A stretch of 13,527 nucleotides of DNA from an uncultured bacterium (GCA_965369835.1 CBDUSE010000088.1:1-13527); one strand, 5' to 3'. Positions 3,415 to 13,211 are shown, numbered from the stretch's first letter. Numbers and translations: made by a program. Notes: generated by a model not told the origin, from the sequence alone.

Positions 3415-4698
3415 ATGGCGGCCCAGAGGCAACACTTCGCGGTCTCCTTCCGCCCATCTTCCGAGATCCGGAAGAGGCTTCGCCTCGGCACCATTGTGCG
3501 CGCTGTCGTTGTTCAGCCGCTGGCCAAGGGCACCGCGATGATCAGCGTCCGCGGCCTCAACACGGTTTCCGTTTCACCCCTTCCACTGATGCGTGGCCAG
3601 GTGCTCTACGCCGAAGTGACCGACATCGGCGAGAAGGTGCACTTGCGCATTGTGCCGTCGCCGAAGGTGCGTGAGGCAAGCCGGGCCACCACCGCCGCCG
3701 AACTGGCGCGCCACCTTGCCGGCCTCGGTATCGAACCGACCGAAGCGGCCATCTGCCTCGCCGCTGCTATGCTCTCAGCCGAGCTTCCGATCACGGCGGA
3801 GGATTTTGCCACGGTGTCCCGACTGGTGCATGAAGCGGGTCGCGACGACGAGGCGACGGCCGCGGCCGCTGCATACACCGTTCGCCATGGGCTCGCCGAC
3901 GATGCGGAAGCCATCGCAGCCGTGCGGGTGGCGCTCTTCGAGCCGCCGTGTCTCGGGGAGCTGCTTGTCGCCCTCGAGGCGGCGCTCTCGTCGGCCAATC
4001 CGGCGCCTTCCGGTCGGGAAAGTATCGCTTCAGCGGTCCGATCGCTCTTGAGACGCCTTCGTTCGGGCGGCCCGGGTGAGTGGCTCTCGTGCGCGGCGGA
4101 ACTCTACGCGGCACCCGCCCAGCCGGAAGCCGAATCCCCGTGCGACTGGCCGGCCCTGCTGGCGCAATGCGCACCCGGGGGAGAAGGAGACCTCGCCGAG
4201 ATCGCCACCCGTTTGCGCGCCGTGCTGGCCGGTTTGCGTGCGGCACACGAGGTCGGCACGCGTGCGGGGGAAGCTCGCTGGATGTTCCAGGTGCCGTTCG
4301 TCCGAAGGGGCGCTGTTGCCACCGCTTTTGTCGAGCTCGCCGGACCGCCGGGAGCATTGCACGCTATGCTCCTGCCAAGCCACGTCAAGGCGCCTGTGCC
4401 GAGCCTCATCGAGGTACGGGCCTGGGTGCCGCTCGAGGCTGACGGCATGGTGTGGTGCGAGCTTCGCGTCCAAGACGGGCTGGCAAAGGGCAAGCTGCGA
4501 GTGGTGGGGGCTGACGAGGCAGGCTCGGTCGCCGCTGAGGCCAAAGCCTGGATCGTCCGGGAGCTGCGTCGCGCCGGCACCGAGCTTTCGAGCCTTGTTG
4601 AGGAAGCTCCTGACGACGAGGGCGCCGGCGCGGGCCGGAGTACCGGCCCGGAGCGTGATCAGGTCATGCCGACAGTCGGCCTGGACTTCAGGATCTGA
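3415..4698 (+). CDS. Ala/Leu/Glu-rich hypothetical protein (427 aa), possibly a FliK-like hook-length-control or related flagellar/chemotaxis accessory protein
   Basis: Long ORF in the same frame as cheX, starting 8 codons after the cheX stop. It has a weak SD, so translational coupling or reinitiation is likely. GC3-biased codon usage, in contrast to the Arg/Pro-rich junk in overlapping frames. The N-terminal segment GTIVRAVVVQPLAKGTAMISVRG...GQVLYAEV and C-terminal segment LLPSHVKAPVPSLIEVRAWVPLEADGMVWCELRVQDGLAKGKLRVVGADEAG...AKAWIVRELRRAGTEL loosely recall the N- and C-terminal (Flg_hook) regions of FliK-type proteins. No confident family assignment. Confidence 0.55.
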   Translation: MAAQRQHFAVSFRPSSEIRKRLRLGTIVRAVVVQPLAKGTAMISVRGLNTVSVSPLPLMRGQVLYAEVTDIGEKVHLRIVPSPKVREASRATTAAELARHLAGLGIEPTEAAICLAAAMLSAELPITAEDFATVSRLVHEAGRDDEATAAAAAYTVRHGLADDAEAIAAVRVALFEPPCLGELLVALEAALSSANPAPSGRESIASAVRSLLRRLRSGGPGEWLSCAAELYAAPAQPEAESPCDWPALLAQCAPGGEGDLAEIATRLRAVLAGLRAAHEVGTRAGEARWMFQVPFVRRGAVATAFVELAGPPGALHAMLLPSHVKAPVPSLIEVRAWVPLEADGMVWCELRVQDGLAKGKLRVVGADEAGSVAAEAKAWIVRELRRAGTELSSLVEEAPDDEGAGAGRSTGPERDQVMPTVGLDFRI

Positions 4699-4715
4699 AC
4701 CGGCCTCTGCACAGG

Positions 4716-5165
4716 TCAGGCGCTGCGGTCAACGCCCGCCTTTTTCCCTGGAACAAAGTCCCTGGCGTAGGCGTGTAGTGTCTCCCGCCCTTTCCGCAGC
4801 CCGTTGAGTTCATCGGTCATTTCCGCTTTTCGTGTGCTGATCACCTCGGCGATGAGGTCGTCCTGCTGCGTGATGGACTCGACGAGTTTGTCCGACTTGC
4901 TGATGAGCGTGCGCAGGCGGGCCTTCTGGTCGGCGGAAAGCGTCCCGGCCCGTGTAGGCTCTAGCTGCGGGCCGAGTGCTTGCTCAAGCTCACGCCACTG
5001 CCGTAGTGCATGGTCGCGGCGGCGGATGAGCCGGTCGAGCCGTCGGGTTTTACCCTGCTCGACGCACTTGCGCTGGCGCTGGGCGAGTTCAAGCACCTCG
5101 GTCAGCAGCTCGACGCGCCGCTCGAACTTCGCAATGAGGTCTTCGTTGAGTGCGGTGGTCGTCAT
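4716..5165 (-). CDS. Small coiled-coil protein (about 149 aa), FlgN-like flagellar export chaperone family (tentative)
   Basis: The start at Met of MTTTALNEDLIAKFERRVELL... is supported by a strong SD (AGGAGGT, 5 nt upstream on the minus strand, plus coords 5171-5177). The protein is Leu/Glu/Arg/Gln-rich with heptad-like periodicity (LTEVLELAQRQRK..., LRTLISKSDKLVESITQQDDLIAEV) resembling FlgN-family chaperones. The ORF-track start at 5324 would overlap the upstream gene and lacks an SD. Confidence 0.55.
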   Translation of the reverse strand: MTTTALNEDLIAKFERRVELLTEVLELAQRQRKCVEQGKTRRLDRLIRRRDHALRQWRELEQALGPQLEPTRAGTLSADQKARLRTLISKSDKLVESITQQDDLIAEVISTRKAEMTDELNGLRKGRETLHAYARDFVPGKKAGVDRSA

Positions 5166-5175
5166 TTCGGACCTC

Positions 5176-6231
5176 CTATTTCGACACGATGCACAGCCCG
5201 CGATCGGCGAGCGGGAGCGTGACGCGTGCGCCGTCGCGCTTGCTCGACTCGAACATCGCAAGTGCCAGCTCGAGCGCCGCGCGGGCATCCTCGGCCGTCG
5301 AGGAGGTTGTGCCGCCCTGTTCAATCGCCTCGACGAGCTCTTTGACGGCGAGCACGTAGGGGTTCGTCTCGCCGGCGGGCGGCGACGGGAACGGCGCGCG
5401 GCGCAGCTCGAAGAAGCCGTCGTAGTGCGGGCTCTCGCCGGACTCGAAGAGCTCGAGTACGCCGTTGTTGCCGATCCGGACGCGGCCGCGGGAGCCGAGC
5501 AGGTCGAGCTCGAACAGCGAGTAGTCCTTGGCGATCGCGTCCACGTGCGCGTACGCGCCGCACTGCATCTCGATCGTGGCGACGCCGTCGCCGTCGTCGT
5601 TCGTCTCGTTGGTGTCGGGGTCCACGTGCGGCCACGTCGAGGCCGAGACCGATTGGGCCGGCCCGGCGAGCCACAGGAGCGCGTCGAAGAAGTGCGTCCC
5701 GGTGTGGATCATCTGGCCGCTGAACGCGCCGCGAACCGACTGCAACTCGCCAAGGCGGCCGTCGTCGAGCAGCGCCTTGAGCGCACGGAAGTCCCAGCAC
5801 CATCGGCGGCTGTGGTTGACGGTCATCGCGATGGTGCGTGTGCGGCAGAGCTCGACGATCTCATCCGCCGCCGCGAGGCTCGTCGCCAGCGCCTTCTCAC
5901 AGAAGATGCCGCGCACGCCGCACGCGATGGCCGCGCGCACGACGTCGAGCCGGACCGACGCAGGAGTACAAATGCTGACGAGATCGGGCCGTTGCTCGTC
6001 GAGCATCGTCTCGAAGTCGTCGTACGCGGCGGGGATGTCGAAGCGCTGCGCGAACTGTTCGGCGCTCTCGATCGTGCGGCCGGCGCAGGCGACAATGCGC
6101 GTCGCTTCGACCGCCCGGTAGGCGCCCGCGTGCGTGCTCGGGTGGCCGCGACGGGTATCGTCCTCGAGCAGGCCCGCGATCCGACCACACCCCACAATGG
6201 CAGCGCGTATGGTTTCTTCTCGAGCGGTCAT
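5176..6231 (-). CDS. Gfo/Idh/MocA-family NAD(P)-dependent oxidoreductase
   Basis: N-terminal Rossmann fingerprint IRAAIVGCGRIAGLL. Typical family elements follow: conserved EKA/EKP motif (here FCEKALA) and a C-terminal alpha/beta dimerization region. Its ATG (6231) overlaps the stop of the upstream gene in a palindromic TCATGA (ATGA-type coupling). Its stop at 5176 is 10 nt before the SD of the next gene. Confidence 0.85.
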   Translation of the reverse strand: MTAREETIRAAIVGCGRIAGLLEDDTRRGHPSTHAGAYRAVEATRIVACAGRTIESAEQFAQRFDIPAAYDDFETMLDEQRPDLVSICTPASVRLDVVRAAIACGVRGIFCEKALATSLAAADEIVELCRTRTIAMTVNHSRRWCWDFRALKALLDDGRLGELQSVRGAFSGQMIHTGTHFFDALLWLAGPAQSVSASTWPHVDPDTNETNDDGDGVATIEMQCGAYAHVDAIAKDYSLFELDLLGSRGRVRIGNNGVLELFESGESPHYDGFFELRRAPFPSPPAGETNPYVLAVKELVEAIEQGGTTSSTAEDARAALELALAMFESSKRDGARVTLPLADRGLCIVSK

Positions 6232-6578
6232 GACGGCTCTCTCGTGCGGCCGACGGCCTCCTCGATTGTCATCTTGCGGACGATACGCTTGACCTCGGCC
6301 ATGATCTCATCGCCGTCGTCCGGGGCGAACTTCTCGTCGAGGGCGCGGTCAATCGCAGCGAGCAGGTCCGGGTCGAGCTGCGCTGCGGCACTGCCGGCAA
6401 GCACCTCGCGGCCGATGCCCTCGACGACCGCCTCGCGCACGTCCCAGCGCTTGAACTGGTCGAGGTGCTTCTCGGTGAGGCGCGTGCCGCGCGGCAGGAG
6501 CATGAGGCCCTTGCTGTTGAACAGCGGCAGCGCCAGGACCATTCCGGGCTGAAGCTCGCTCAGGCTCAGCAGGCCCAT
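6228..6578 (-). CDS. Standalone DUF3391-like domain protein (116 aa). The domain is normally found N-terminal to HD-GYP phosphodiesterases.
   Basis: LSLSELQPGMVLALPLFNSKGLMLLPRGTRLTEKHLDQFKRWDVREAVVE matches the L-x-PGM-V ... G..L......I..L...GV..V pattern I associate with DUF3391. SD AAGGAGA about 9 nt upstream of the ATG at 6578. It is the first gene of a minus-strand operon, followed by the oxidoreductase and the FlgN-like gene. Confidence 0.65.
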   Translation of the reverse strand: MGLLSLSELQPGMVLALPLFNSKGLMLLPRGTRLTEKHLDQFKRWDVREAVVEGIGREVLAGSAAAQLDPDLLAAIDRALDEKFAPDDGDEIMAEVKRIVRKMTIEEAVGRTREPS

Positions 6579-6836
6579 CCGATGGTGTCTCCTTTACGTC
6601 CCGGCACAGTGCAGCCTCCTCGTTCTGAGTGATGCAAGAGACGTGCCACGGACAGCGGGCGGCAGGCTGCATGAACTCCAGAGAAGGGGGTAGGTGAGGG
6701 CAAGAAGAGGAATGTGGGCCTTTGCGACACCCTGTCCCCTGGCAGAGAGGGTACGTCCGGGTCAGAGCGGTAACTCGGGGGATGGTACGGATATTGCGTT
6801 GGAAAAGCTGAGTGAGCGAGTTTCTGGAGCAGGTGC

Positions 6837-8012
6837 GTGAGCAGGATCATAGACATCCAGGGCGCGGCCGAGCTGCTGGCGGTTGACTACAAGACCGTGT
6901 ACCGGCTCATCCGGAGCGGTGAGCTGCCGGCGGCCAGGATCGGGCGCATCTATCGTCTTGCGCTGGAGGACGTTGAGCGCTACTTCGAGGAGCGCAAGGC
7001 GGCTACGATGCGCGAGCTCCGGGCCAACGGCCGGGACAACCGTGTGGCCAGACCGCTGCACGGCGACGATAAGTCGGTCGAGCGCCGCTGCGCCTGGTGT
7101 GGCCGCGAGCTGGTGCTCAAATACTCCGTCGCCGCCGAATGTGATGAGCCGGGCTGCGAGGCGGTAATTTGCCGCGAGTGTGCCCGCGTGGATAAGGCGA
7201 CCCGCTGCCCGGCGCATGCCCGGCCGAAGGACCGCAACGAGCAGGTCGAGAGACTGCGCGCCGAAGGTCTCCCGGTCGTGGGCGCGGAGGACCTGCAAGC
7301 GCTTGCCGCCTCGTATCTCTCGGAGGTGACCGATCGCTTCGATCAACTCTCCGGCTGGCCCGCGGACAATGCGTCCCTCGTGCCCCGCGAAAAGCTTGCG
7401 GTGACGATTCGTCGCAACCCGGCAGCGGAGGAATGGCTTGCGCTCGACGGGGGAGCGGCGGCGTTCGAGGCGGAGATTGCGCGGCGCGGCCGGGTCCGAA
7501 CCGGTCGGGCGTTTCTTGCAGTACTGCTTGTGCCGGCGGTGCACCGGTCGGCATACAAACGGCACGGTTTCGACGTACAGCCGTGCACGGCCGCCGATCT
7601 CCGCGCAGTCCTCGATGAAACAGTAAGGACTCGCAAAGACATGGGCTACCTTGTTGTTACGGTTTGGTCGCCGACGGGATGGACGGAACAAGCGGTGGAT
7701 CGGGCGGCAACGGGCTTGCGCGCCGGCATTCGTGTGGTGCTCGTGGACCGGCCGGGCGGTCGCTGCTATGGCGCGGGCGAGCCGGTGGAATACCTCCTCA
7801 ACCCGCTCTCGGATGGGCCGGTGATCAGCGAGTGCGCAGCGTTCGTGCGGAACGGGCTCGCGGTGCAGTCGAGCATCCGGCTCGAGACACTCGTCGAGGA
7901 GGGCGGCTTCCACCGCGAGATCGCGCACCGCTGCTTCGAGCGGCTGGCGGCAACAGGCGAGTACCTCATTGACCGGTTCGACGACCTCGGCGCGGTTATT
8001 TCGAGGCGCTAG
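6837..8012 (+). CDS. Excisionase/MerR-type HTH (HTH_17) DNA-binding protein with a central Cys4 zinc-ribbon and a C-terminal domain of unknown function. First gene of the 4-gene operon.
   Basis: GTG start with GGAG 7 nt upstream. The N-terminus IIDIQGAAELLAVDYKTVYRLIRSGELPAARIGRIYRLALEDVERYF is a textbook excisionase-family HTH. The Cys cluster C-AWCGRELV...CDEPGCEAVICRECARV...RCPAH forms a zinc ribbon or treble clef. The C-terminal 200 aa have no recognisable family. The antisense 477-aa ORF (6762..8195) is rejected as a shadow. Confidence 0.8.
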   Translation: MSRIIDIQGAAELLAVDYKTVYRLIRSGELPAARIGRIYRLALEDVERYFEERKAATMRELRANGRDNRVARPLHGDDKSVERRCAWCGRELVLKYSVAAECDEPGCEAVICRECARVDKATRCPAHARPKDRNEQVERLRAEGLPVVGAEDLQALAASYLSEVTDRFDQLSGWPADNASLVPREKLAVTIRRNPAAEEWLALDGGAAAFEAEIARRGRVRTGRAFLAVLLVPAVHRSAYKRHGFDVQPCTAADLRAVLDETVRTRKDMGYLVVTVWSPTGWTEQAVDRAATGLRAGIRVVLVDRPGGRCYGAGEPVEYLLNPLSDGPVISECAAFVRNGLAVQSSIRLETLVEEGGFHREIAHRCFERLAATGEYLIDRFDDLGAVISRR

Positions 8013-8015
8013 GCG

Positions 8016-9518
8016 ATGGGCTTTTTGACGACACAATGTCCGTACTGTGGCGCGCGCGTGCGCAAGTCGAGCAACTTTTGTGGGGCGTGCGGCAAGCCGG
8101 CGCCGAAGCGGGCGGTGCATTGCGGCCGCTGCGGGCGTGCGAGCGCGTCGGGCGCGAAGTTCTGCTCGCACTGCGGCGCGGAACTCGCCCGACACGGCAA
8201 GGCGATGCTCGTGGACAACCGCTGGGCGCGCGAGCCCGAGGAGTTCGCGGTCGTCCTCGACGTTGAGGACCTGGCGGGTTTCTTGGCCAAGTCGCTGGTC
8301 GTCGAGCCGGGCACGCGCGCGCTCCTATTCCGTGGCGAGCGACACGCGGGCGTGCTCGAACCGGGCCGTCACACGGTCGAGAGCGTGCCGCGGCGGCTTG
8401 CGACGCTGGGGCGCGATGGACCGACGACGGTGGTTCTTGTCTCGGCTGACGACGTGGCGGTCGAGCTGGATCTGCCGGAGGTGTGGACGGCCGACGAGCA
8501 GGTGGTGTCGGTGAAGGTCTTCCTCGTCGTGCGGCTCGTGGACCCGCAGGCGTTCCGGCGCGAGGTCGTGGGCGCTAGGTGGCGCGTCCTGCTCGACGAC
8601 ATTCGCGAGCTGTGGCGCGCGGAGGGATTGCCGGTGGTGGCGGAGATCGTCCGGCGCGAGACGCTCGAGTCGCTCTGTGCGAGGCCGGGCCTCCGCGAAG
8701 CGGTCGAGGAGGAGCTGCGGATCGAGCTCAACGGCACGTGTGCGCGAAGCGGCCTCGAGCTTGTGCAGCTTCGCTGCCTCGACTTCTACGGCGACGCCTA
8801 CGAGCGGCTTCGCGCCGAACGCGGCGAGGCGTTCCAACTGAGCCGCGCGCTCGAGCTTTACAGGCGCGTGCAGGGCGAGCTGTCCGCCGAGCGGATCGAG
8901 CGCTTTCGGTCCGAGCAGGAGTTCGAGCAGTTCGTGCGCGAGGCCGAGCACCAGGCGGGACTCAAGGTGCTGCTGCGCGAGCAGGAAATCGAGGACTTCA
9001 AGCGGGCGTACCGCGAGCGGCTGGCGCTCGACACAGCGAGGCGCGAGATCGAGCAGGGCGCCGTCGCCTTCGAGTCGGAGCTCGAGAAGGAGAAGGCGCT
9101 CGACGAGCTGCGGTGGGCCAAGCGCGAACGTGGACTCGAGCTGCTCGAGAAGATTCGCGAGCTGCGCCACCGCGAGCGGCTGCGCCGGATCGAGACCGAT
9201 GAGCTCCGGCTCGGCATCTACAGCCGGGCGACGATCGAGGCGCTCATCGCCATCCTCGACGACGAGCGGGCCGACCGCCTGGTCGAGTTGCGGAAGTTTC
9301 AGGAGCAGACGAAGATGTCGCCCGAGCAACTGCTGGCGCTCGTGGCGGCGAACTCGCCCGAGGCGGCGCTGGCATTGGCGGAAAAGTACCGTTCTGAGGC
9401 GGCCATAACGGCCGAGACCTACGAGCGTGTCAGCGGCGAGATTGCCGCGGCGAGTGAGACAAGCGACGGCGAACCGATGCCGGAGCAGGAAAAACGCGAA
9501 GAGCAGGAGTACGCGTGA
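8016..9518 (+). CDS. Double zinc-ribbon :: SPFH/Band-7 (stomatin/flotillin-like) domain :: long Glu/Arg/Leu coiled-coil protein, without a predicted membrane anchor
   Basis: N-terminal CPYCGARV...FCGACGKP...HCGRCGRA...FCSHCGAEL contains four CxxC pairs (a double zinc ribbon). It is followed by SLVVEPGTRALLFRGERHAGVLEPGRHTV...TADEQVVSVKVFLVVRLVDPQAFRREV, matching the SPFH core pattern (PG..a..f.G.....l.PG.H ... T.D...V.V......v.dp). After that come about 250 aa of EA/ER-rich heptads as in flotillins. The ATG lies 3 nt after the stop of the previous gene (GAGG upstream). Confidence 0.8.
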   Translation: MGFLTTQCPYCGARVRKSSNFCGACGKPAPKRAVHCGRCGRASASGAKFCSHCGAELARHGKAMLVDNRWAREPEEFAVVLDVEDLAGFLAKSLVVEPGTRALLFRGERHAGVLEPGRHTVESVPRRLATLGRDGPTTVVLVSADDVAVELDLPEVWTADEQVVSVKVFLVVRLVDPQAFRREVVGARWRVLLDDIRELWRAEGLPVVAEIVRRETLESLCARPGLREAVEEELRIELNGTCARSGLELVQLRCLDFYGDAYERLRAERGEAFQLSRALELYRRVQGELSAERIERFRSEQEFEQFVREAEHQAGLKVLLREQEIEDFKRAYRERLALDTARREIEQGAVAFESELEKEKALDELRWAKRERGLELLEKIRELRHRERLRRIETDELRLGIYSRATIEALIAILDDERADRLVELRKFQEQTKMSPEQLLALVAANSPEAALALAEKYRSEAAITAETYERVSGEIAAASETSDGEPMPEQEKREEQEYA

Positions 9519-10984
9519 TGCCGCCGACGAGCTCCGAGAGGCGCGTGGCCAGGTGCCCCGAGTGCGACCACGAGGTATCGCACAAGCGCTACTGCGAGCA
9601 TTGCGGCGCGCTCCTGTCGAAGGCGATCGTGCCCGGGTCGCTCGGACTGGAGACGGTGCCGGCCGCTGCGGGCGACTTTCGGCTCGAGATTGACGCGTCG
9701 CGCGTGTTGCAGCAGTACGCGGTCGGCGTGCTCGAGCTGCGGCTCACGAACACCGGTGCGCACGAGGTGCAACTGGCGATGGTCGAGATCGAGACGCCGG
9801 TGGTGGACTCGCCGCTGCGCAGCATCGTGCGGGACGTGCGGCGCGGGCGGCACATGCCGTTGAGGTTCTCGGTCATCCCGGTGCGGCACGGCGAGGCGGC
9901 GTGCCGGGTGCGCATCAAGGCGCTGGATGCGGCGCAGGTCTTCAGCGTGCACGTGGGTGAGCTTACGCTCATCGTCAACCCACCGCACGTCGAGGAGACA
10001 ACGCTACAATTTGTCATCAAGAACAGCGATGTGGTGGGCGACTTCGAGAACGTCTTCAAGCCGGCGCGGCGCTGGCCGCGCGGCGTGATGCAGCCGCGGC
10101 GCCGCGCACTGTGGGTGCCGGTGCGGCTCGTCGAGGAGGTGCGCTGCGAAGTGCGGCCGGTGCGCAAGCAGATCGTCGGTCCGGAGCGCCTTGCGGGCGT
10201 GCCGCCGATGGAGAGAGCGGCGCTACGCATGCTCGAGCGGGGCGAGATGCGCACCGTGGCGCTCTTTGCCAAGCTCAAGCTTGCCTTCGGGCGAAGCTCA
10301 GCACCGGACCCGCAAAGCCGGGAGCGCAACGACGTGGTGCTTCGGCTCGAGCCGGACACGGCGCCAACCCGGGACCTCTCGCGGCGGATTCATCGCTTTG
10401 CCTTTCAGTTGCGCGCGGGGGCCGACGAGGTGCAGCTTGTGCGGCTCGGACGGCGCGATGGTCGGGTCGTTGTCGAGGCGATCGAGCCACTCGGCGACCG
10501 TGAGCCGATTGATGTGGCGGGACTTTTTGAGCTGATGCCCCGCATCGTCAAGGGGCCCGACTACCTCAGGTGGAAGAGGTTCAACGTGTATCGCGGTTCC
10601 GAGCGCGCGCCCGAGATCGAGCTGGTGGAGGTCTGCGTGCCGAGCGCCGAGCAGGTGCTCGGCGTGGTGCTCAGCCGCTCCGACGAGGCGGCCGAGCGCG
10701 AGGCGTACGTCCAGGTGCGCCGGTACGTGACGATCGGCGCCTCGCCCGAGGCGGCGATCGTGGTGCGCGAGCCGGGCGTCTCAGGCATTCATGCGCGGCT
10801 GATCGCTAAGGGAGGCCTTTTTCTCGTCGAGGACCTCGGCAGCGCGAACGGTACGTGGGTCAACGAGCGGCGCCTCCAGCCGGACGAGGTCGCGCCGCTC
10901 AAGTACGGTGACCACATCATGCTGGGCAACACGGCGCTGGCGTTCGAGCCGTTTGAGCAGCACTTTGGAGAGGGCGATTCGTGA
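9515..10984 (+). CDS. Zinc-ribbon :: central beta-rich region :: C-terminal FHA (forkhead-associated, phospho-Thr binding) domain protein
   Basis: The ATG overlaps the preceding stop (GTGATG; AGGAG 8 nt upstream). N-terminal RCPECDHEV...YCEHCGAL is a zinc ribbon. The C-terminal YVTIGASPEAAIVVREPGVSGIHARLIAKGGLFLVEDLGSANGTWVNERRL...GDHIMLGNTALAF carries the FHA signature (G-[RA], S-x-x-H, DLGS-NGT-xVN), though GA replaces the usual GR. Confidence 0.8.
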   Translation: MMPPTSSERRVARCPECDHEVSHKRYCEHCGALLSKAIVPGSLGLETVPAAAGDFRLEIDASRVLQQYAVGVLELRLTNTGAHEVQLAMVEIETPVVDSPLRSIVRDVRRGRHMPLRFSVIPVRHGEAACRVRIKALDAAQVFSVHVGELTLIVNPPHVEETTLQFVIKNSDVVGDFENVFKPARRWPRGVMQPRRRALWVPVRLVEEVRCEVRPVRKQIVGPERLAGVPPMERAALRMLERGEMRTVALFAKLKLAFGRSSAPDPQSRERNDVVLRLEPDTAPTRDLSRRIHRFAFQLRAGADEVQLVRLGRRDGRVVVEAIEPLGDREPIDVAGLFELMPRIVKGPDYLRWKRFNVYRGSERAPEIELVEVCVPSAEQVLGVVLSRSDEAAEREAYVQVRRYVTIGASPEAAIVVREPGVSGIHARLIAKGGLFLVEDLGSANGTWVNERRLQPDEVAPLKYGDHIMLGNTALAFEPFEQHFGEGDS

Positions 10985-12714
10985 ACCGGGACGCGCCGGG
11001 CACAAAAAAGAGCCGACCGCACGATCCGCTCGACGAGGCGACCACCTTCGTCGAGGGACGCCGGGTGGCGCAACCGTTCGAGGTGGGCGATACGGTCTCG
11101 GACCGGTACGTGCTACGTGCGGGGCTTGGCCGAGGCGGGATGGGCGTCGTGTACCGTGCCGACGACCTGCTGTTGGACGAGCCGGTGGCGATCAAGATGA
11201 TGAGCCCGGCGCTGCTGGCGAGCGAGTCGCTCTCGCGGCGTTTCTTCGAGGAGGCGCGAATCGCCCGCCGGCTCAACCACGACAACATCATTCGCGTCAA
11301 CGACGTCGGCGAGACCGAGGGTGTCAAGTACATCACGATGGAGTTTGTGGATGGCATCTCGCTGCGCGAGTGGATCCGCGCGCACGCACACAGCGAGACA
11401 GGTTCAGAGTACCTGGCGGACACCCTCTTCATTGTGCGGCAGATCTGCGCCGGGCTGCGATACGCGCACCGGCACACGCTGCACCGCGACCTCAAGCCGG
11501 AGAACGTGCTCCTGAGCAACGACGGGCAGGTCAAGATCGCCGACTTCGGCATTGCCCGGCTCAAGGACCGGGCCGACTACACGGTCTCGAAGGCGCGGTT
11601 CGGCACGATGTACTACGTCGCGCCCGAGCGGCTTTCGGGAACGGGCGACGACGCGCGCTCGGACCTCTACTCGCTCGGCGTCCTTTTCTACGAGATGCTC
11701 ACCGGCCGGCTGCCGGTCGGCCTGTTCGCGATGCCGACGAAGCTCGACCCCGAGCTGCCGGCGGTCATTGACGAGATCGTGGCGAAGCTGCTCGCCTTCA
11801 ACCCGCGCGACCGCTACCGGTCGGCAGCCGACGTGCTGCTCGAGCTTGACAAGCTCAGCGGGCGGCAGGTCTGGCGCGAGGCGCCTGCGACTGCCGCGGA
11901 AGCCAGGGCAAAGGCGGAGGTCGCGACTTCCTTGGAAACGGAACCGACCGTCACGACTGCTCGCGCCACACCGGCTCCCCCCACGCGGCGGACGGCTCCC
12001 GCTGGGATGGTGCTCATTCCGGGGGGCACGTTCAAGATGGGGAGCGAGACGGGCGACGAGGACGAGCAGCCGATTCACGCGGTCAAGATCGAGCCATTCT
12101 TCATGGACCAGGCGCCGGTGACAAACGCGCAGTTCTTCGAGTTCCTCCAGGCACGGCCCGAGTGGCGCAAGGCCGCAGCCGATCGCGCCCGGACCGACCG
12201 CGACTACCTCGCGCTCTGGAACTACAACACCTATCCGCCGGAGCTGAGGGACCACCCGGTGGTGTTCGTGAGCTGGTACGCGGCGAGGGCGTACGCCGAG
12301 TGGCGCGGCTGCCGCCTGCCGACCGAGGCGGAGTGGGAGCACGCCGCGCGTGGCGGGCTCGAGGAACGCGAGTTCCCGTGGGGCGACCTGCCGGATTCGG
12401 ACCGGGCGCACTTCCACTCGAGCCTCGGGACGGTGCCCGTGAAGTCGTTCCCGCCGAATGGGCACGACCTGTTCGAGATGGCGGGCAACGTCTGGGAATG
12501 GTGCGAGGACTGGTACGACGAGAAGTTCTACCGCGGCCTGACCGAAAGGGTTGAGGGTCCCGTATGCAGCGATTCGGCGAGCGGCCTGAAGGTGATTCGC
12601 GGTGGCGCGTGGTGCTACTACGCTTATGTGATGCGCTGCGCCTTCCGGAGCGGCTTCCCGCCGCATTCAGCCGACATCAACGGCGGCTTCCGCTGCGCCC
12701 GCAGTCTTGGCTGA
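10981..12714 (+). CDS. Hanks-type Ser/Thr protein kinase fused through an Ala/Pro/Thr-rich linker to a C-terminal FGE-sulfatase (SUMF1/EgtB/PvdO-like) domain
   Basis: The GTG start overlaps the upstream stop (GGAGAGGG 8 nt upstream). All catalytic kinase motifs are present: LGRGGMGVVY, VAIKMM, FFEEARIARRL, HRDLKPENVLL, DFGIAR, YVAPERL. After the linker PAPPTRRTAPAG comes an FGE-sulfatase fold: MVLIPGGTFKMGS, PIHAVKIEPFFMDQAPVTNAQF, WEHAARGG, GNVWEWCEDWY, IRGGAWCYYAYVMRCAFRSG, GFRCARS. No hydrophobic transmembrane segment is visible. Confidence 0.9.
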   Translation: MNRDAPGTKKSRPHDPLDEATTFVEGRRVAQPFEVGDTVSDRYVLRAGLGRGGMGVVYRADDLLLDEPVAIKMMSPALLASESLSRRFFEEARIARRLNHDNIIRVNDVGETEGVKYITMEFVDGISLREWIRAHAHSETGSEYLADTLFIVRQICAGLRYAHRHTLHRDLKPENVLLSNDGQVKIADFGIARLKDRADYTVSKARFGTMYYVAPERLSGTGDDARSDLYSLGVLFYEMLTGRLPVGLFAMPTKLDPELPAVIDEIVAKLLAFNPRDRYRSAADVLLELDKLSGRQVWREAPATAAEARAKAEVATSLETEPTVTTARATPAPPTRRTAPAGMVLIPGGTFKMGSETGDEDEQPIHAVKIEPFFMDQAPVTNAQFFEFLQARPEWRKAAADRARTDRDYLALWNYNTYPPELRDHPVVFVSWYAARAYAEWRGCRLPTEAEWEHAARGGLEEREFPWGDLPDSDRAHFHSSLGTVPVKSFPPNGHDLFEMAGNVWEWCEDWYDEKFYRGLTERVEGPVCSDSASGLKVIRGGAWCYYAYVMRCAFRSGFPPHSADINGGFRCARSLG

Positions 12715-12799: not shown

Positions 12800-13057
12800 C
12801 TAATCGGATTCCGACCCGTTGGCGCCGGAGCGCCGTTGAGAATCCCCGTTCCGATTGCTTTCCCTGATCACGTTGGCGGCCTGTAAGCCGCGCGGGTCCT
12901 CCACGATCTCAAACTCAACCGGCTCGTTACGGCGCAGGGTCTTGAATCCTTCGCCGAGGATCGCCGAATGGTGCACGAAGATCTCGCCGTGCTTCTCGTC
13001 ACGGATAAACCCATACCCTAGCTTGCTGTCGAACCACTTGACAGTGCCACGCATCAT
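12800..13057 (-). CDS. cspA: Cold-shock protein (CspA family, S1-like cold-shock domain) with a C-terminal Arg/Ser/Asn/Gly-rich tail of about 20 aa
   Basis: MMRGTVKWFDSKLGYGFIRDEKHGEIFVHHSAILGEGFKTLRRNEPVEFEIVEDPRGLQAANVI carries the RNP1 (KGYGFI) and RNP2 (VFVHF-like, here IFVHH) motifs. The start ATGATG at 13057 is preceded by GAGGGGGT, a good SD. The ORF-track start at 13171 adds an unlikely 38-aa leader that has no SD. Confidence 0.9.
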   Translation of the reverse strand: MMRGTVKWFDSKLGYGFIRDEKHGEIFVHHSAILGEGFKTLRRNEPVEFEIVEDPRGLQAANVIRESNRNGDSQRRSGANGSESD

Positions 13058-13211
13058 AGCTGCTACCCCCTCACTCCAAGAGCGTGCTTGGGTGCTTAGT
13101 CCGTAGGTGGAGAGTGGAAGGCAGGGAGACTGAGTGCCCTGCACGCGCTCACCGAAAACGGAAAGCATCACCCCGATAAAAAGACCGCTACTACAAAGTC
13201 TCTTGCCGTGT
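13058..13211 (-). other. Predicted long 5' untranslated leader of the cold-shock gene, a possible cold-box or thermosensing RNA element
   Basis: No ORF lies between the csp start and the promoter-like element. CspA-family mRNAs characteristically carry structured 5'UTRs longer than 100 nt. This is inferred from geometry only. Confidence 0.35.

Follow-up and report, generated by a model that had tools for sequence, protein, structure and literature searches.

An undescribed four-gene operon encoding HTH, SPFH, FHA and kinase-FGE proteins in an uncultured bacterium

The operon and its upstream region

The window, by which we mean the whole 13,527-nt stretch of DNA from an uncultured bacterium that was analysed, contains four consecutive genes, here called g1 to g4. 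The initial annotation described them as a tight plus-strand operon with a Shine-Dalgarno (SD) sequence for each gene; the reading frames, the 3-nt gap and the overlapping junctions are all borne out by the sequence, and an SD-like motif lies ahead of each of the four starts. The features of the region are:

6713-6729, no strand assigned: conserved TGT-N11-ACA element, TGTGGGCCTTTGCGACA, between two divergent promoters (alignment of three lineage members)
6783-6797, plus strand: predicted sigma-54-type (-24/-12) promoter, TGGTACGGATATTGC, ~40 nt upstream of the g1 start
6826-6829: SD-like motif of g1, GGAG
6837-8012, plus strand: g1, ORF of 391 aa
8003-8006: SD-like motif of g2, GAGG
8016-9518, plus strand: g2, ORF of 500 aa
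9505-9509: SD-like motif of g3, AGGAG
9515-10984, plus strand: g3, 489 aa from GTG or 488 aa from the ATG at 9518
10967-10974: SD-like motif of g4, GGAGAGGG
10981-12714, plus strand: g4, ORF of 577 aa

Read from the sequence, the g1/g2 junction is TAG gcg ATG, with a gap of 3 nt, and the g3/g4 junction is GTGA, an overlap of 4 nt. The g2/g3 junction, cGTGATG, offers two possible starts for g3, a GTG at 9515 (4-nt overlap) and an ATG at 9518 (1-nt overlap). The ATG is the start that the collection's gene caller chose, and the spacing of the AGGAG motif suits it better than the GTG. As had been proposed, none of the four products has a transmembrane (TM)-like segment, the maximum Kyte-Doolittle mean over 19 residues being <=1.52 in all four. 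Rfam returned zero matches within the window.

The sigma-54 consensus is TGGCAC-N5-TTGC, with GG at -24 and GC at -12. The plus-strand site upstream of g1 is conserved in an alignment of upstream regions and its -24/-12 spacing is exact. Each locus of the window's lineage has exactly two matches to the pattern TGGYAYN5TTGC, always divergently oriented as here, and the minus-strand site fits a stricter pattern ending in W that is expected 0.01 times per window. A scan for sigma-70 promoters and terminators gave nothing convincing for the operon, and no sigma-70 promoter at the sigma-54-type site. A sigma-54-type promoter is thus predicted to drive the operon throughout the window's lineage. The TGT-N11-ACA element, which is a perfect palindrome (TGTGGGCCTTTCCCACA) in the related locus L008, is a candidate binding site for an activator or for g1.

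Domain composition of the four proteins

All of the domains originally called (HTH_17, DZR/zinc ribbon, Band_7, FHA, Pkinase and FGE-sulfatase) are upheld by Pfam. By residue, the proteins are organized as follows:

g1: HTH_17, 7-53; C7H zinc finger, 85-127; helical linker; alpha/beta domain, ~170-325; winged helix, ~326-391
g2: two Cys4 zinc ribbons, 8-53; SPFH/Band_7 domain, 95-274; charged helical region, 276-~470; acidic tail
g3: Cys4 ribbon, 14-30; beta-rich domain, ~54-156; tentative internal FHA-like region, ~246-346; C-terminal FHA domain, 405-471
g4: Hanks-type Ser/Thr kinase, ~36-303; FGE-sulfatase-like domain, 341-574

The excisionase-type HTH ascribed to g1 is confirmed by Pfam (HTH_17, E = 4.6e-13), with the excisionase-family domain (HTH_17/TIGR01764) scoring 48.4 bits against a cut-off of 28.8, although the structure model gives this N-terminal HTH low confidence. 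Because the window contains no integrase or recombinase gene, we regard it as a putative regulator-type DNA-binding domain rather than an excisionase; a prophage excisionase is rejected on account of the missing integrase and the stable synteny. What had been called a Cys4 zinc ribbon is in fact an eight-ligand finger of seven Cys and one His (C85, C88, C102, C107, C112, C115, C124 and H127), and the C-terminal domain, previously listed as unknown, comprises an alpha/beta domain and a winged helix. We define the C7H finger, alpha/beta domain and winged helix as one module, g1CTD. It belongs to a rare family, with 177 clusters in 1.84 billion. The module is always C-terminal, fused to HTH_17, Pkinase (with zf-HC2), CHAT or FHA; CHAT caspase-like protease fusions occur in members P0070, P0143 and P0159, and P0066 carries an N-terminal zf-HC2 anti-sigma-type finger. 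Of all parts of the system, it is the C-terminus of g1 that tells the most.

In g2, CxxC motifs at 8, 22, 36 and 50 account for the ribbons (Zn_ribbon_3, E = 1.3e-10; DZR, E = 1.2e-8), and the Band_7 match (E = 2.1e-9; score 38.1 bits, cut-off 23.6 bits) places the protein in the SPFH/Band 7 family; Band_7_1 matches with E = 0.063. A profile of the g2 family finds the flotillin-2 SPFH domain as its top match in the PDB (E = 0.002), and the single g2 sequence finds no PDB match. The double zinc ribbon fused to an SPFH core thus stands as first described, but not the 250-aa length of the coiled coil that follows; the helical region is ~225 aa (276-500), and from its composition it is probably a coiled coil. 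The family is small, with 23 matches (5 loci from GTDB genomes, 17 from metagenomes), and a TM-like segment is absent in all 23 (maximum 19-residue mean <=1.72). Membrane-anchored SPFH proteins have an N-terminal TM segment or hairpin and, in many bacterial operons, an NfeD partner; g2 is without both, NfeD not being among the called neighbour genes of the window and lineage loci. Its sequence therefore does not look like that of a member of the membrane-anchored type (flotillin, stomatin, HflK/C).

The C-terminal FHA domain of g3 (Pfam E = 7.4e-17) also matches Yop-YscD_cpl (46.9 bits, cut-off 33.2) and is detectably similar to GarA, OdhI and FhaB. The hallmarks of canonical phosphothreonine-binding FHA domains are Gly-Arg, Ser-x-x-His and Asn-Gly, in which the Arg and Ser contact phosphate (Rad53 FHA1, GarA). 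Aligned with GarA, however, the g3 domain has GA for GR and SgiH for SrrH. The Ala that replaces Arg after the conserved Gly is invariant in 9 lineage sequences, and the Ser position is Ser or Ala, followed by Gly or Pro rather than a basic residue; the His and NG are retained. Most other FHA proteins collected, unlike g3, have GR...SRRH. The altered positions are presumably those that contact phosphothreonine, and the domain does not appear to be a canonical phosphothreonine-binding FHA. The kinase/FHA writer/reader pair proposed earlier is therefore not secure. In the internal FHA-like region the generic FHA profile found nothing, and hhalign placed the motifs in the correct register with a probability of only 2.8%. 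AF2 modelled g3 poorly (pLDDT 40.6); the beta region alone reached ~70. Distant full-length relatives of g3 lie in loci L026, L016 and L019.

The description of g4 as an intact Hanks kinase fused to an FGE-sulfatase-like domain holds. Both Pfam domains are present (Pkinase, E = 4.8e-46; FGE-sulfatase, E = 3.7e-63), and the translation has a complete set of catalytic motifs: GxGxxG (GRGGMGVVY), VAIK, HRDLKPEN, DFG and APE. By these motifs, g4 is a predicted Hanks-type Ser/Thr protein kinase. The FGE-like domain aligns with the solved FGEs 6muj, 2q17, 6s07 and 5nxl (fold-level E = 2.6e-42). In FGE/SUMF1 the active site is a Cu-binding, catalytic cysteine pair, C-x4-C. At the pair in our alignment that we take to be the same, C545 of g4 keeps the first Cys, the second is Val and two residues are deleted. 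Because the second Cys is missing, the domain probably serves for binding or is some other kind of enzyme, and we reject a true FGE enzyme.

Relatives, genomic context and known systems

The initial annotation left the conservation of the four genes across genomes to be checked. Lineage relatives keep all four, at 55-85% identity, and distant Planctomycetota loci, whose SPFH proteins are 26-36% identical to g2, hold these modules rearranged, with different gene orders and domain fusions. Specifically, L026 encodes a g3-like FHA protein, an HTH17-ZnF-CTD protein, a PK-FGE protein and an SPFH protein inside 10 kb; L005 encodes ZnR-SPFH, ZnR-FGE and FHA-PK proteins, plus a PK-ZnF-CTD protein; L019 has SPFH, a g3-like FHA protein and a kinase in the same order as the window; and in L018, L004 and L033 the SPFH gene is paired with a g1CTD protein. 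Among the 11 distant SPFH loci that span 7 kb or more, 5 carry the g1CTD module. In L004 and L005, the gene of a g1CTD-bearing kinase either adjoins an ECF sigma gene or overlaps it. The SPFH gene has AAA and Snf7 genes next to it in L004 and L016, and an AAA gene in L005 and L018 (AAA in 4 and Snf7 in 2 of the 11); the classical AAA proteins of these relatives score higher against p97/Cdc48 D2 than against Vps4. PspA and Snf7 are absent from the window and lineage loci up to 10 kb on each side, and the window's operon has no AAA gene. Kinases and FGE-domain proteins are very abundant in Planctomycetota, and their proximity to SPFH genes there could be partly chance.

Searches of PADLOC, NCBIfam and PHROGs gave domain-level matches and no named system, and a description of the four-gene system was not found in the searched literature, in keeping with the earlier statement that the assembly was not recognized as any named signalling, stress-response or anti-phage defence system. 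Among known systems, Bacillus subtilis ydjFGHI (PspA, SPFH protein YdjI, zinc-ribbon YdjG) likewise combines SPFH/Band-7 and zinc ribbons with a tie to the ESCRT-III superfamily (PMC8581546, PMC11237479). YdjI brings in PspA (PMC8581546), whose partners include Band-7 proteins with zinc ribbons and AAA+ ATPases (PMC11237479), and g2 relatives similarly adjoin Snf7 in L004 and L016. However, the window lacks PspA/Snf7 and a membrane-integral YdjG/H-like partner; g2 matches Band_7 rather than Band_7_1 and has N-terminal ribbons, unlike the ydj proteins; and kinase, FHA, FGE and HTH components are all absent from the ydj module. By its neighbourhood, the window operon is not a PspA/ESCRT-III-linked (YdjI-type) SPFH module. 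Archaeal ESCRT loci encode SPFH-coiled-coil-zinc-ribbon proteins, Ser/Thr kinases (STK), FHA and winged-helix proteins (Makarova et al. 2024, PMC10936438), a likeness at the level of shared domains. They are defined by Vps4 and ESCRT-III, both absent from the window; the Snf7 and AAA ATPase likeness is found only in the Planctomycetota relatives.

The mycobacterial Hanks/FHA pairs, PknB with FhaA/FhaB and GarA/OdhI, resemble the operon, in which an intact Hanks-type kinase and an FHA protein share a transcript. They differ in that g3 has Ala for Arg, g4 is soluble with an FGE-like domain in place of the PASTA/TM sensor, and the operon also includes an SPFH scaffold and an HTH protein of its own. 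ECF-STK pairs are already known, and the planctomycete ECF43 and ECF59-62/STK pairs, as given in the available text of PMC7826278, are similar to the kinase-g1CTD genes beside ECF sigma in L004 and L005; the window instead has an HTH_17 fusion. That text makes no mention of the C-terminal ZnF-alpha/beta-winged-helix module.

A proposed phosphorylation module on an SPFH scaffold and its alternatives

The four-gene assembly is a real, undescribed signalling module. Our best explanation, which we put somewhat short of an even chance, is a cytoplasmic Ser/Thr-phosphorylation module on a soluble SPFH oligomeric scaffold, with a transcriptional output and a probable role in membrane or envelope surveillance or response. 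In this scheme, the SPFH domain and the charged helical region of g2 would mediate its oligomerization, and its ribbons would dock partners and possibly the membrane. The g4 kinase, probably competent given its intact motifs, would be gated by a ligand on the non-catalytic FGE-like (C-type-lectin-fold) domain, and g3 would serve as an adaptor through its FHA-type domains. The output would be g1, whose constant C-terminal module may plug into the complex while HTH_17 binds DNA; the data show this domain logic, in that the same module in relatives carries a kinase near ECF sigma, CHAT or FHA instead of the HTH. A membrane or envelope role is most likely because relatives have AAA and Snf7 (ESCRT-III/PspA superfamily) genes and SPFH-PspA ties exist elsewhere; since the window operon lacks PspA, Snf7 and AAA, the membrane-stress link rests on distant relatives. 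That the operon proteins diverge no faster or slower than flanking housekeeping genes counts in favour. We counted against this explanation that g2 is anchor-less and matches solved SPFH structures weakly, that the C-terminal g3 FHA has lost the Arg and the internal one is statistically unsupported, that the g1 HTH is modelled with low confidence, and that kinases and FGE-domain proteins abound in Planctomycetota. A more specific proposal, which we consider unlikely, is that the operon is a minimal form of a PVC-specific system for membrane surveillance or remodelling, in which a soluble ZnR-SPFH cage under Ser/Thr-phosphorylation control recruits or controls an ESCRT-III-like (Snf7) filament and a Cdc48/Vps4-like AAA ATPase, and the hitherto undescribed ZnF-alpha/beta-winged-helix adaptor domain reports to transcription. 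The Snf7 and AAA genes that this proposal calls on lie beside SPFH genes in Planctomycetota relatives, and possibly elsewhere in the window's genome.

A role in anti-phage defence or conflict, of the abortive-infection type, would have the FGE-like domain or the g1 alpha/beta-winged-helix part sense an invader, the kinase phosphorylate host or phage proteins, and SPFH or g1 execute the response. In PADLOC-DB v2.0.0 the g4 kinase domain matches PD-T4-6 (E = 4.5e-74), mad6 (E = 1.7e-65), Stk2 and MkoA, and the g1 HTH matches mad1. These are generic kinase and HTH domains, however; g2 and g3 have no match, so no known anti-phage system is recognized, and the NCBIfam equivalogs MADS1 (MAD1; 29.2 bits against a cut-off of 80) and MADS6 (MAD6; 173.1 against 460) fall far short of MADS membership. 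The CHAT fusions in the g1CTD family favour defence, as do the WD40, TPR and AAA genes around L005, a weak EAD9 match in the g1-ZnF protein of L011 and a resolvase in L019. So does the published description of FGS/FGE domains that bind or 'neutralise' effectors in conflict systems, planctomycetes included; in NTP-dependent conflict systems they are non-enzymatic binding modules C-terminal to signalling domains, as is probable for g4 (Kaur et al. 2020, PMC7159879). The window nevertheless lacks the STAND, MoxR, vWA, GTPase core, DGR and methyltransferase components of such systems and of PD-T4-6/Stk2/MADS, and holds no other defence or mobile genes. The operon is flanked by chemotaxis/flagellar and housekeeping genes with synteny stable across the lineage, the operon proteins diverge at the same rate as the flanking housekeeping genes, and g2 relatives are absent from viral contigs. 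Context and evolutionary rate argue against a defence role, which we judge quite improbable.

The flanking genes bear on another reading of about the same low probability, a lineage-specific flagellar/chemotaxis regulator, co-regulated with the divergent FlgN operon through back-to-back sigma-54 promoters. CheR, CheY, CheA, HDOD, CheY, CheX and FlgN adjoin the operon in the window and L002; in L008 the che genes are replaced, yet FlgN, GFO and a 116-aa gene remain adjacent. The two conserved divergent -24/-12 promoters with their common TGT-N11-ACA element fit this reading, as does the Yop-YscD_cpl match. In Sulfolobus, ArnA (zinc-ribbon-FHA)/ArnB with the kinases ArnC/ArnD control archaellum expression. 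The g3 FHA matches PDB 5a8i, which we take to be the ArnA FHA, with E = 7e-4, and shares with ArnA an N-terminal ribbon plus FHA, a kinase-controlled circuit and a link to motility genes; g3 differs in having ~370 extra residues between ribbon and FHA, only the FHA being detectably similar, and the window has no vWA partner, the ArnA system being archaeal. Against a motility role, flagellar and chemotaxis genes are missing from all the distant loci that carry these modules, adjacency in one lineage is explicable by inherited synteny, and sigma-54 promoters are not flagellar-specific. Finally, four unrelated genes might be together only by recent common ancestry, as full-length g1 and g3 relatives from a word-indexed search all belong to one lineage that also shares the flanking genes. 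This coincidence is hardly credible given the overlapping or 3-nt junctions, the recurrence of the modules in different orders and fusions in distant loci, and the 5 of 11 loci in which two rare families, g1CTD and ZnR-SPFH, occur together.

The phosphorylation module on a soluble SPFH scaffold that we favour would bear on several questions. SPFH proteins have usually been studied as membrane-anchored scaffolds; the operon genetically links one that has no TM segment to a kinase, a putative FHA adaptor and a predicted transcription factor. The partners of bacterial Ser/Thr kinases are usually unknown, and the operon offers a defined four-protein system for reconstitution. The newly delineated, rare and uncharacterized module of C7H finger, alpha/beta domain and winged helix is a constant C-terminal 'plug', to which an HTH, a kinase with ECF sigma, a CHAT protease or an FHA domain is attached as output. 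The Snf7 and classical AAA genes beside Planctomycetota SPFH relatives bear on membrane remodelling in PVC bacteria, which have complex endomembranes, and provide a bacterial parallel to the archaeal ESCRT-associated kinase/FHA/SPFH loci. If the minimal PVC-specific membrane-surveillance proposal were true, the operon would be the bacterial counterpart of those archaeal ESCRT/STK/FHA/SPFH loci.

Layout and domain content of the operon

The initial annotation described four consecutive, translationally coupled genes on the plus strand, and this layout is borne out by the open reading frames (ORFs) and by the junctions read off the sequence, which are TAG-gcg-ATG for g1/g2, GTGATG for g2/g3, and GTGA for g3/g4. 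Each start is preceded by an SD-like purine run.

Genes of the operon
6837–8012, plus strand: g1, ORF of 391 aa
8016–9518, plus strand: g2, ORF of 500 aa
9515–10984, plus strand: g3, ORF of 489 aa
10981–12714, plus strand: g4, ORF of 577 aa

For g3, the ATG at 9518 appears the likelier start, because it is the gene caller's choice (488 aa) and AGGAG (9505–9509) lies 8 nt upstream. Pfam searches confirmed every domain type that had been proposed: HTH_17 in g1 (E = 4.6e-13), zinc ribbons/DZR plus Band_7 in g2 (Band_7 E = 2.1e-9, exceeding the gathering score), FHA in g3 (E = 7.4e-17), and Pkinase (4.8e-46) and FGE-sulfatase (3.7e-63) in g4. As anticipated, none of the four proteins has a transmembrane-like segment, nor do any of 23 g2-family members. 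The operon combines known domain types with two uncharacterized ones; even with the threshold relaxed to E ≤ 1, Pfam matches nothing in residues 131–391 of g1 or 39–395 of g3, and the predicted structure of g3 is unusable except for a beta-rich segment at ~53–155.

Examination of individual motifs changes several assignments. The Cys4 ribbon assigned to g1 does not hold up; instead, seven cysteines and His127 form the pattern C-x2-C-x13-C-x4-C-x4-C-x2-C-x8-C-x2-H, which is kept in the g1-family consensus and defines a predicted eight-ligand, probably binuclear, finger. The g4 kinase contains the full set of Hanks catalytic motifs, and the domain fused to it aligns strongly with solved FGEs (E = 2.6e-42). 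Copper binding and catalysis by FGE require both cysteines of a motif that reads 'CHdsYC' in the solved enzymes; in g4 the alignment gives 'CyyaYV' followed by a two-residue deletion. With the second Cys replaced by Val, one member of the required pair is missing, and we rejected a canonical FGE identity. Of the proposed fusion, the intact kinase and the match to an FGE-like fold therefore stand, but not the canonical enzyme.

The proposed kinase and FHA writer/reader pair likewise survives only in part. FHA domains contact phosphothreonine through an Arg and a Ser, and in the alignment with GarA, 'GR...SrrH' becomes 'GA...SgiH' in g3. The Ala is invariant in a nine-sequence lineage alignment and the Ser position is Ser or Ala; most unrelated FHA proteins collected have GR...SRRH. 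Both domains are present and the kinase motifs are intact, but, given Ala for Arg and the variable Ser position, the Pfam-detected g3 FHA is unlikely to be a canonical phosphothreonine reader. Distant full-length g3 relatives (L026, profile E = 7e-19; L016; L019) have a Pfam-significant internal FHA (residues 259–334 in L026), and the matching region of g3 keeps an invariant GR (G258/R259 when numbered from the ATG) and SRRIH. An FHA profile gave this region no statistical support, and hhalign assigned it 2.8% probability; we consider a second, internal FHA in g3 a lead rather than a result.

Conservation and reshuffling of the modules

Close relatives, including MAGs labeled Verrucomicrobia/Verrucomicrobiota, keep all four genes (identities of 73–85% for g2, 62–76% for g3, and 55–70% for g1). 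Because the flanking genes are shared as well, this conservation alone indicates only inherited synteny. More informative are distant g2 homologues (26–36% identity, nearly all labeled Planctomycetota), for which GTDB representative genomes supplied 5 loci and metagenomes 17. There, local profile searches and Pfam identified the operon's modules in different orders and fusions. Specifically, L026 contains a g3-like FHA protein, an HTH17-zinc finger-CTD protein, a kinase-FGE protein, and an SPFH protein inside 10 kb. L005 encodes zinc ribbon-SPFH, zinc ribbon-FGE, and FHA-kinase proteins; a further kinase at this locus shows homology to g1 residues 81–389 in its C-terminal half (E = 1.2e-21), and its gene overlaps that of an ECF sigma factor. 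L019 has SPFH, a g3-like FHA protein, and a kinase in the same order as the window, and L016 has a g3-like zinc ribbon/beta protein directly after SPFH. In L018, L004, and L033, SPFH is accompanied by a protein with g1CTD, the C-terminal module of g1 (C7H zinc finger, alpha/beta domain, and winged helix). L019, a Planctomycetaceae contig, also encodes a serine recombinase (291–947; Resolvase, E = 7e-18) ~2.5 kb upstream of its SPFH, FHA, and kinase genes; no other gene of mobile-element type was seen in the vicinity of these loci.

Among the 11 distant loci that span 7 kb or more, 7 have a kinase, 6 an FGE-like domain, 5 a g1CTD protein, 4 FHA, 4 a classical AAA ATPase, and 2 Snf7. An exhaustive profile search found 177 g1CTD clusters among 1.84 billion representatives. 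Because g1CTD and zinc ribbon-SPFH are both rare families, we infer that their meeting by chance in 5/11 loci is very unlikely. Finding kinases and FGE domains close to SPFH is weaker evidence, given how abundant both are in Planctomycetota. The combination thus extends beyond this genome, kept whole in the lineage and reshuffled in distant loci; the feature is real and conserved.

The g1CTD module follows a simple architectural logic. Among the best 150 of the 177 family members, it is always C-terminal, preceded by HTH_17 in about 69/150 and by a Ser/Thr kinase in at least 10/150, one of which (P0066) has an additional N-terminal zf-HC2 anti-sigma-type finger. Other N-terminal partners are a CHAT caspase-like protease (P0070, P0143, P0159), tandem FHA domains (P0112), and, in some members, a long helical region resembling the gene downstream of SPFH in L013. 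That this C-terminal module stays constant while the output domains ahead of it vary suggests that g1CTD is what senses the common machinery or docks into it.

Three loci (L004, L005, and L018) have a conserved ~212-aa gene after the g1CTD gene, and next to it the gene of a single-domain classical AAA ATPase.

AAA ATPase genes near SPFH and the ~212-aa uncharacterized family, always between g1CTD and AAA genes
L004 3456–4121: ~212-aa family
L005 1025–1660, minus strand: ~212-aa family
L018 1992–2630: ~212-aa family
L004 4133–5923: region with the AAA ATPase (ORF 4133–5311)
L016 6207–7930: AAA ATPase
L018 2683–3852: AAA ATPase
L005 3–899: AAA ATPase

The L004 and L018 members of the ~212-aa family have no Pfam match. 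The best PDB match of the ATPase is p97/Cdc48 D2 (E = 5e-76), with Vps4B at 5e-44; the L016 ATPase has a weak Vps4_C match, and a Snf7 (ESCRT-III family) gene directly adjoins the ATPase in L004 and L016. In an ORF scan, L004 1135–3459 (kinase-zinc finger-CTD) and 4133–5311 (AAA ATPase) are clearly coding and absent from the contig's recorded gene table.

Predicted promoters and flanking genes

The divergent intergenic region upstream of g1 is 258 bp long (6579–6836) and carries two back-to-back sigma-54-type (-24/-12) promoters.

Elements of the divergent intergenic region
6633–6648, minus strand: sigma-54-type promoter TGGCACGTCTCTTGCA, putatively driving the 116-aa/GFO/FlgN operon
6713–6729, between the two promoters: conserved TGT-N11-ACA element
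6783–6797, plus strand: sigma-54-type promoter TGGTACGGATATTGC, putatively driving g1–g4

The 16-nt pattern of the minus-strand promoter is expected by chance 0.01 times per window. Exactly this promoter pair occurs in every locus of the lineage; it was not found in the distant Planctomycetota loci, and a scan upstream of g1 found no sigma-70 promoter. The TGT-N11-ACA element, a perfect palindrome in the close relative L008, could be recognized by an enhancer-binding protein or by g1. In the close relative L002, the public call of the g1 orthologue (8600–9997, 465 aa) starts upstream of the conserved sigma-54 promoter (8776–8790) and the conserved protein starts about 77 residues after the annotated start; the annotated N-terminal extension is therefore probably wrong.

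The operon is flanked by a chemotaxis cluster, FlgN, a GFO/Idh/MocA oxidoreductase (GFO), and a cold-shock protein (CSD). A gene-by-gene comparison of the window with two relatives shows that the operon evolves like its neighbors: against L002, g4 is 78% identical and GFO 77%, g2 73% and CSD 74%, g3 62% and CheA 63%, and g1 55% and FlgN 52%. The fastest-diverging neighborhood gene (47% identity to L002) is a 427-aa ORF without a Pfam match between CheX and FlgN (3415–4698, plus strand). A 116-aa ORF (6228–6578, minus strand), likewise unmatched in Pfam, shares 4 nt with the start of the GFO gene and adjoins the operon in all lineage loci. The CSD gene (12800–13171, minus strand; ORF 123 aa, called gene 84 aa) is convergent with the end of g4, and no convincing intrinsic terminator lies between them.

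Possible roles of the operon

The earlier impression that this is no named signaling or defense system agrees with our searches. PADLOC returned generic kinase and HTH matches and nothing for g2 or g3, NCBIfam MADS1 and MADS6 scored far under their cut-offs, PHROGs matched at the domain level only, viral contigs contained no relatives of the g2 family, and literature searches found no description of the four-gene assembly. The nearest described themes are YdjI/PspA of B. subtilis (PMC8581546), Band-7 plus zinc ribbon proteins and AAA+ ATPases with PspA or Snf7 (PMC11237479), archaeal ESCRT loci containing SPFH-CC-ZnR proteins, STK, and FHA (PMC10936438), ECF-kinase pairs (PMC7826278), and conflict-system FGS domains acting as binding effectors (PMC7159879).

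The last of these, together with the g1CTD-CHAT fusions, would fit a conflict or defense system, but both the genomic context and the divergence rates speak against this role, which we regard as unlikely. A regulator linked to motility has about the same low probability: the operon adjoins chemotaxis and flagellar genes and shares its sigma-54 region with the divergent operon, but flagellar genes are absent from the distant loci. That the four genes are juxtaposed by coincidence is highly improbable.

The data themselves establish the operon's structure, the intact kinase, the degenerate FGE and FHA sites, the conservation at module level, and the logic of the g1CTD architectures. Of the readings considered, the best supported, which we propose tentatively, is that the operon encodes an SPFH-scaffolded Ser/Thr signaling module. 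Its members would be in physical contact, a stimulus would act on the module, and g1 would be its transcriptional output; through a presumed link to the membrane, the module would probably monitor membrane or envelope state.
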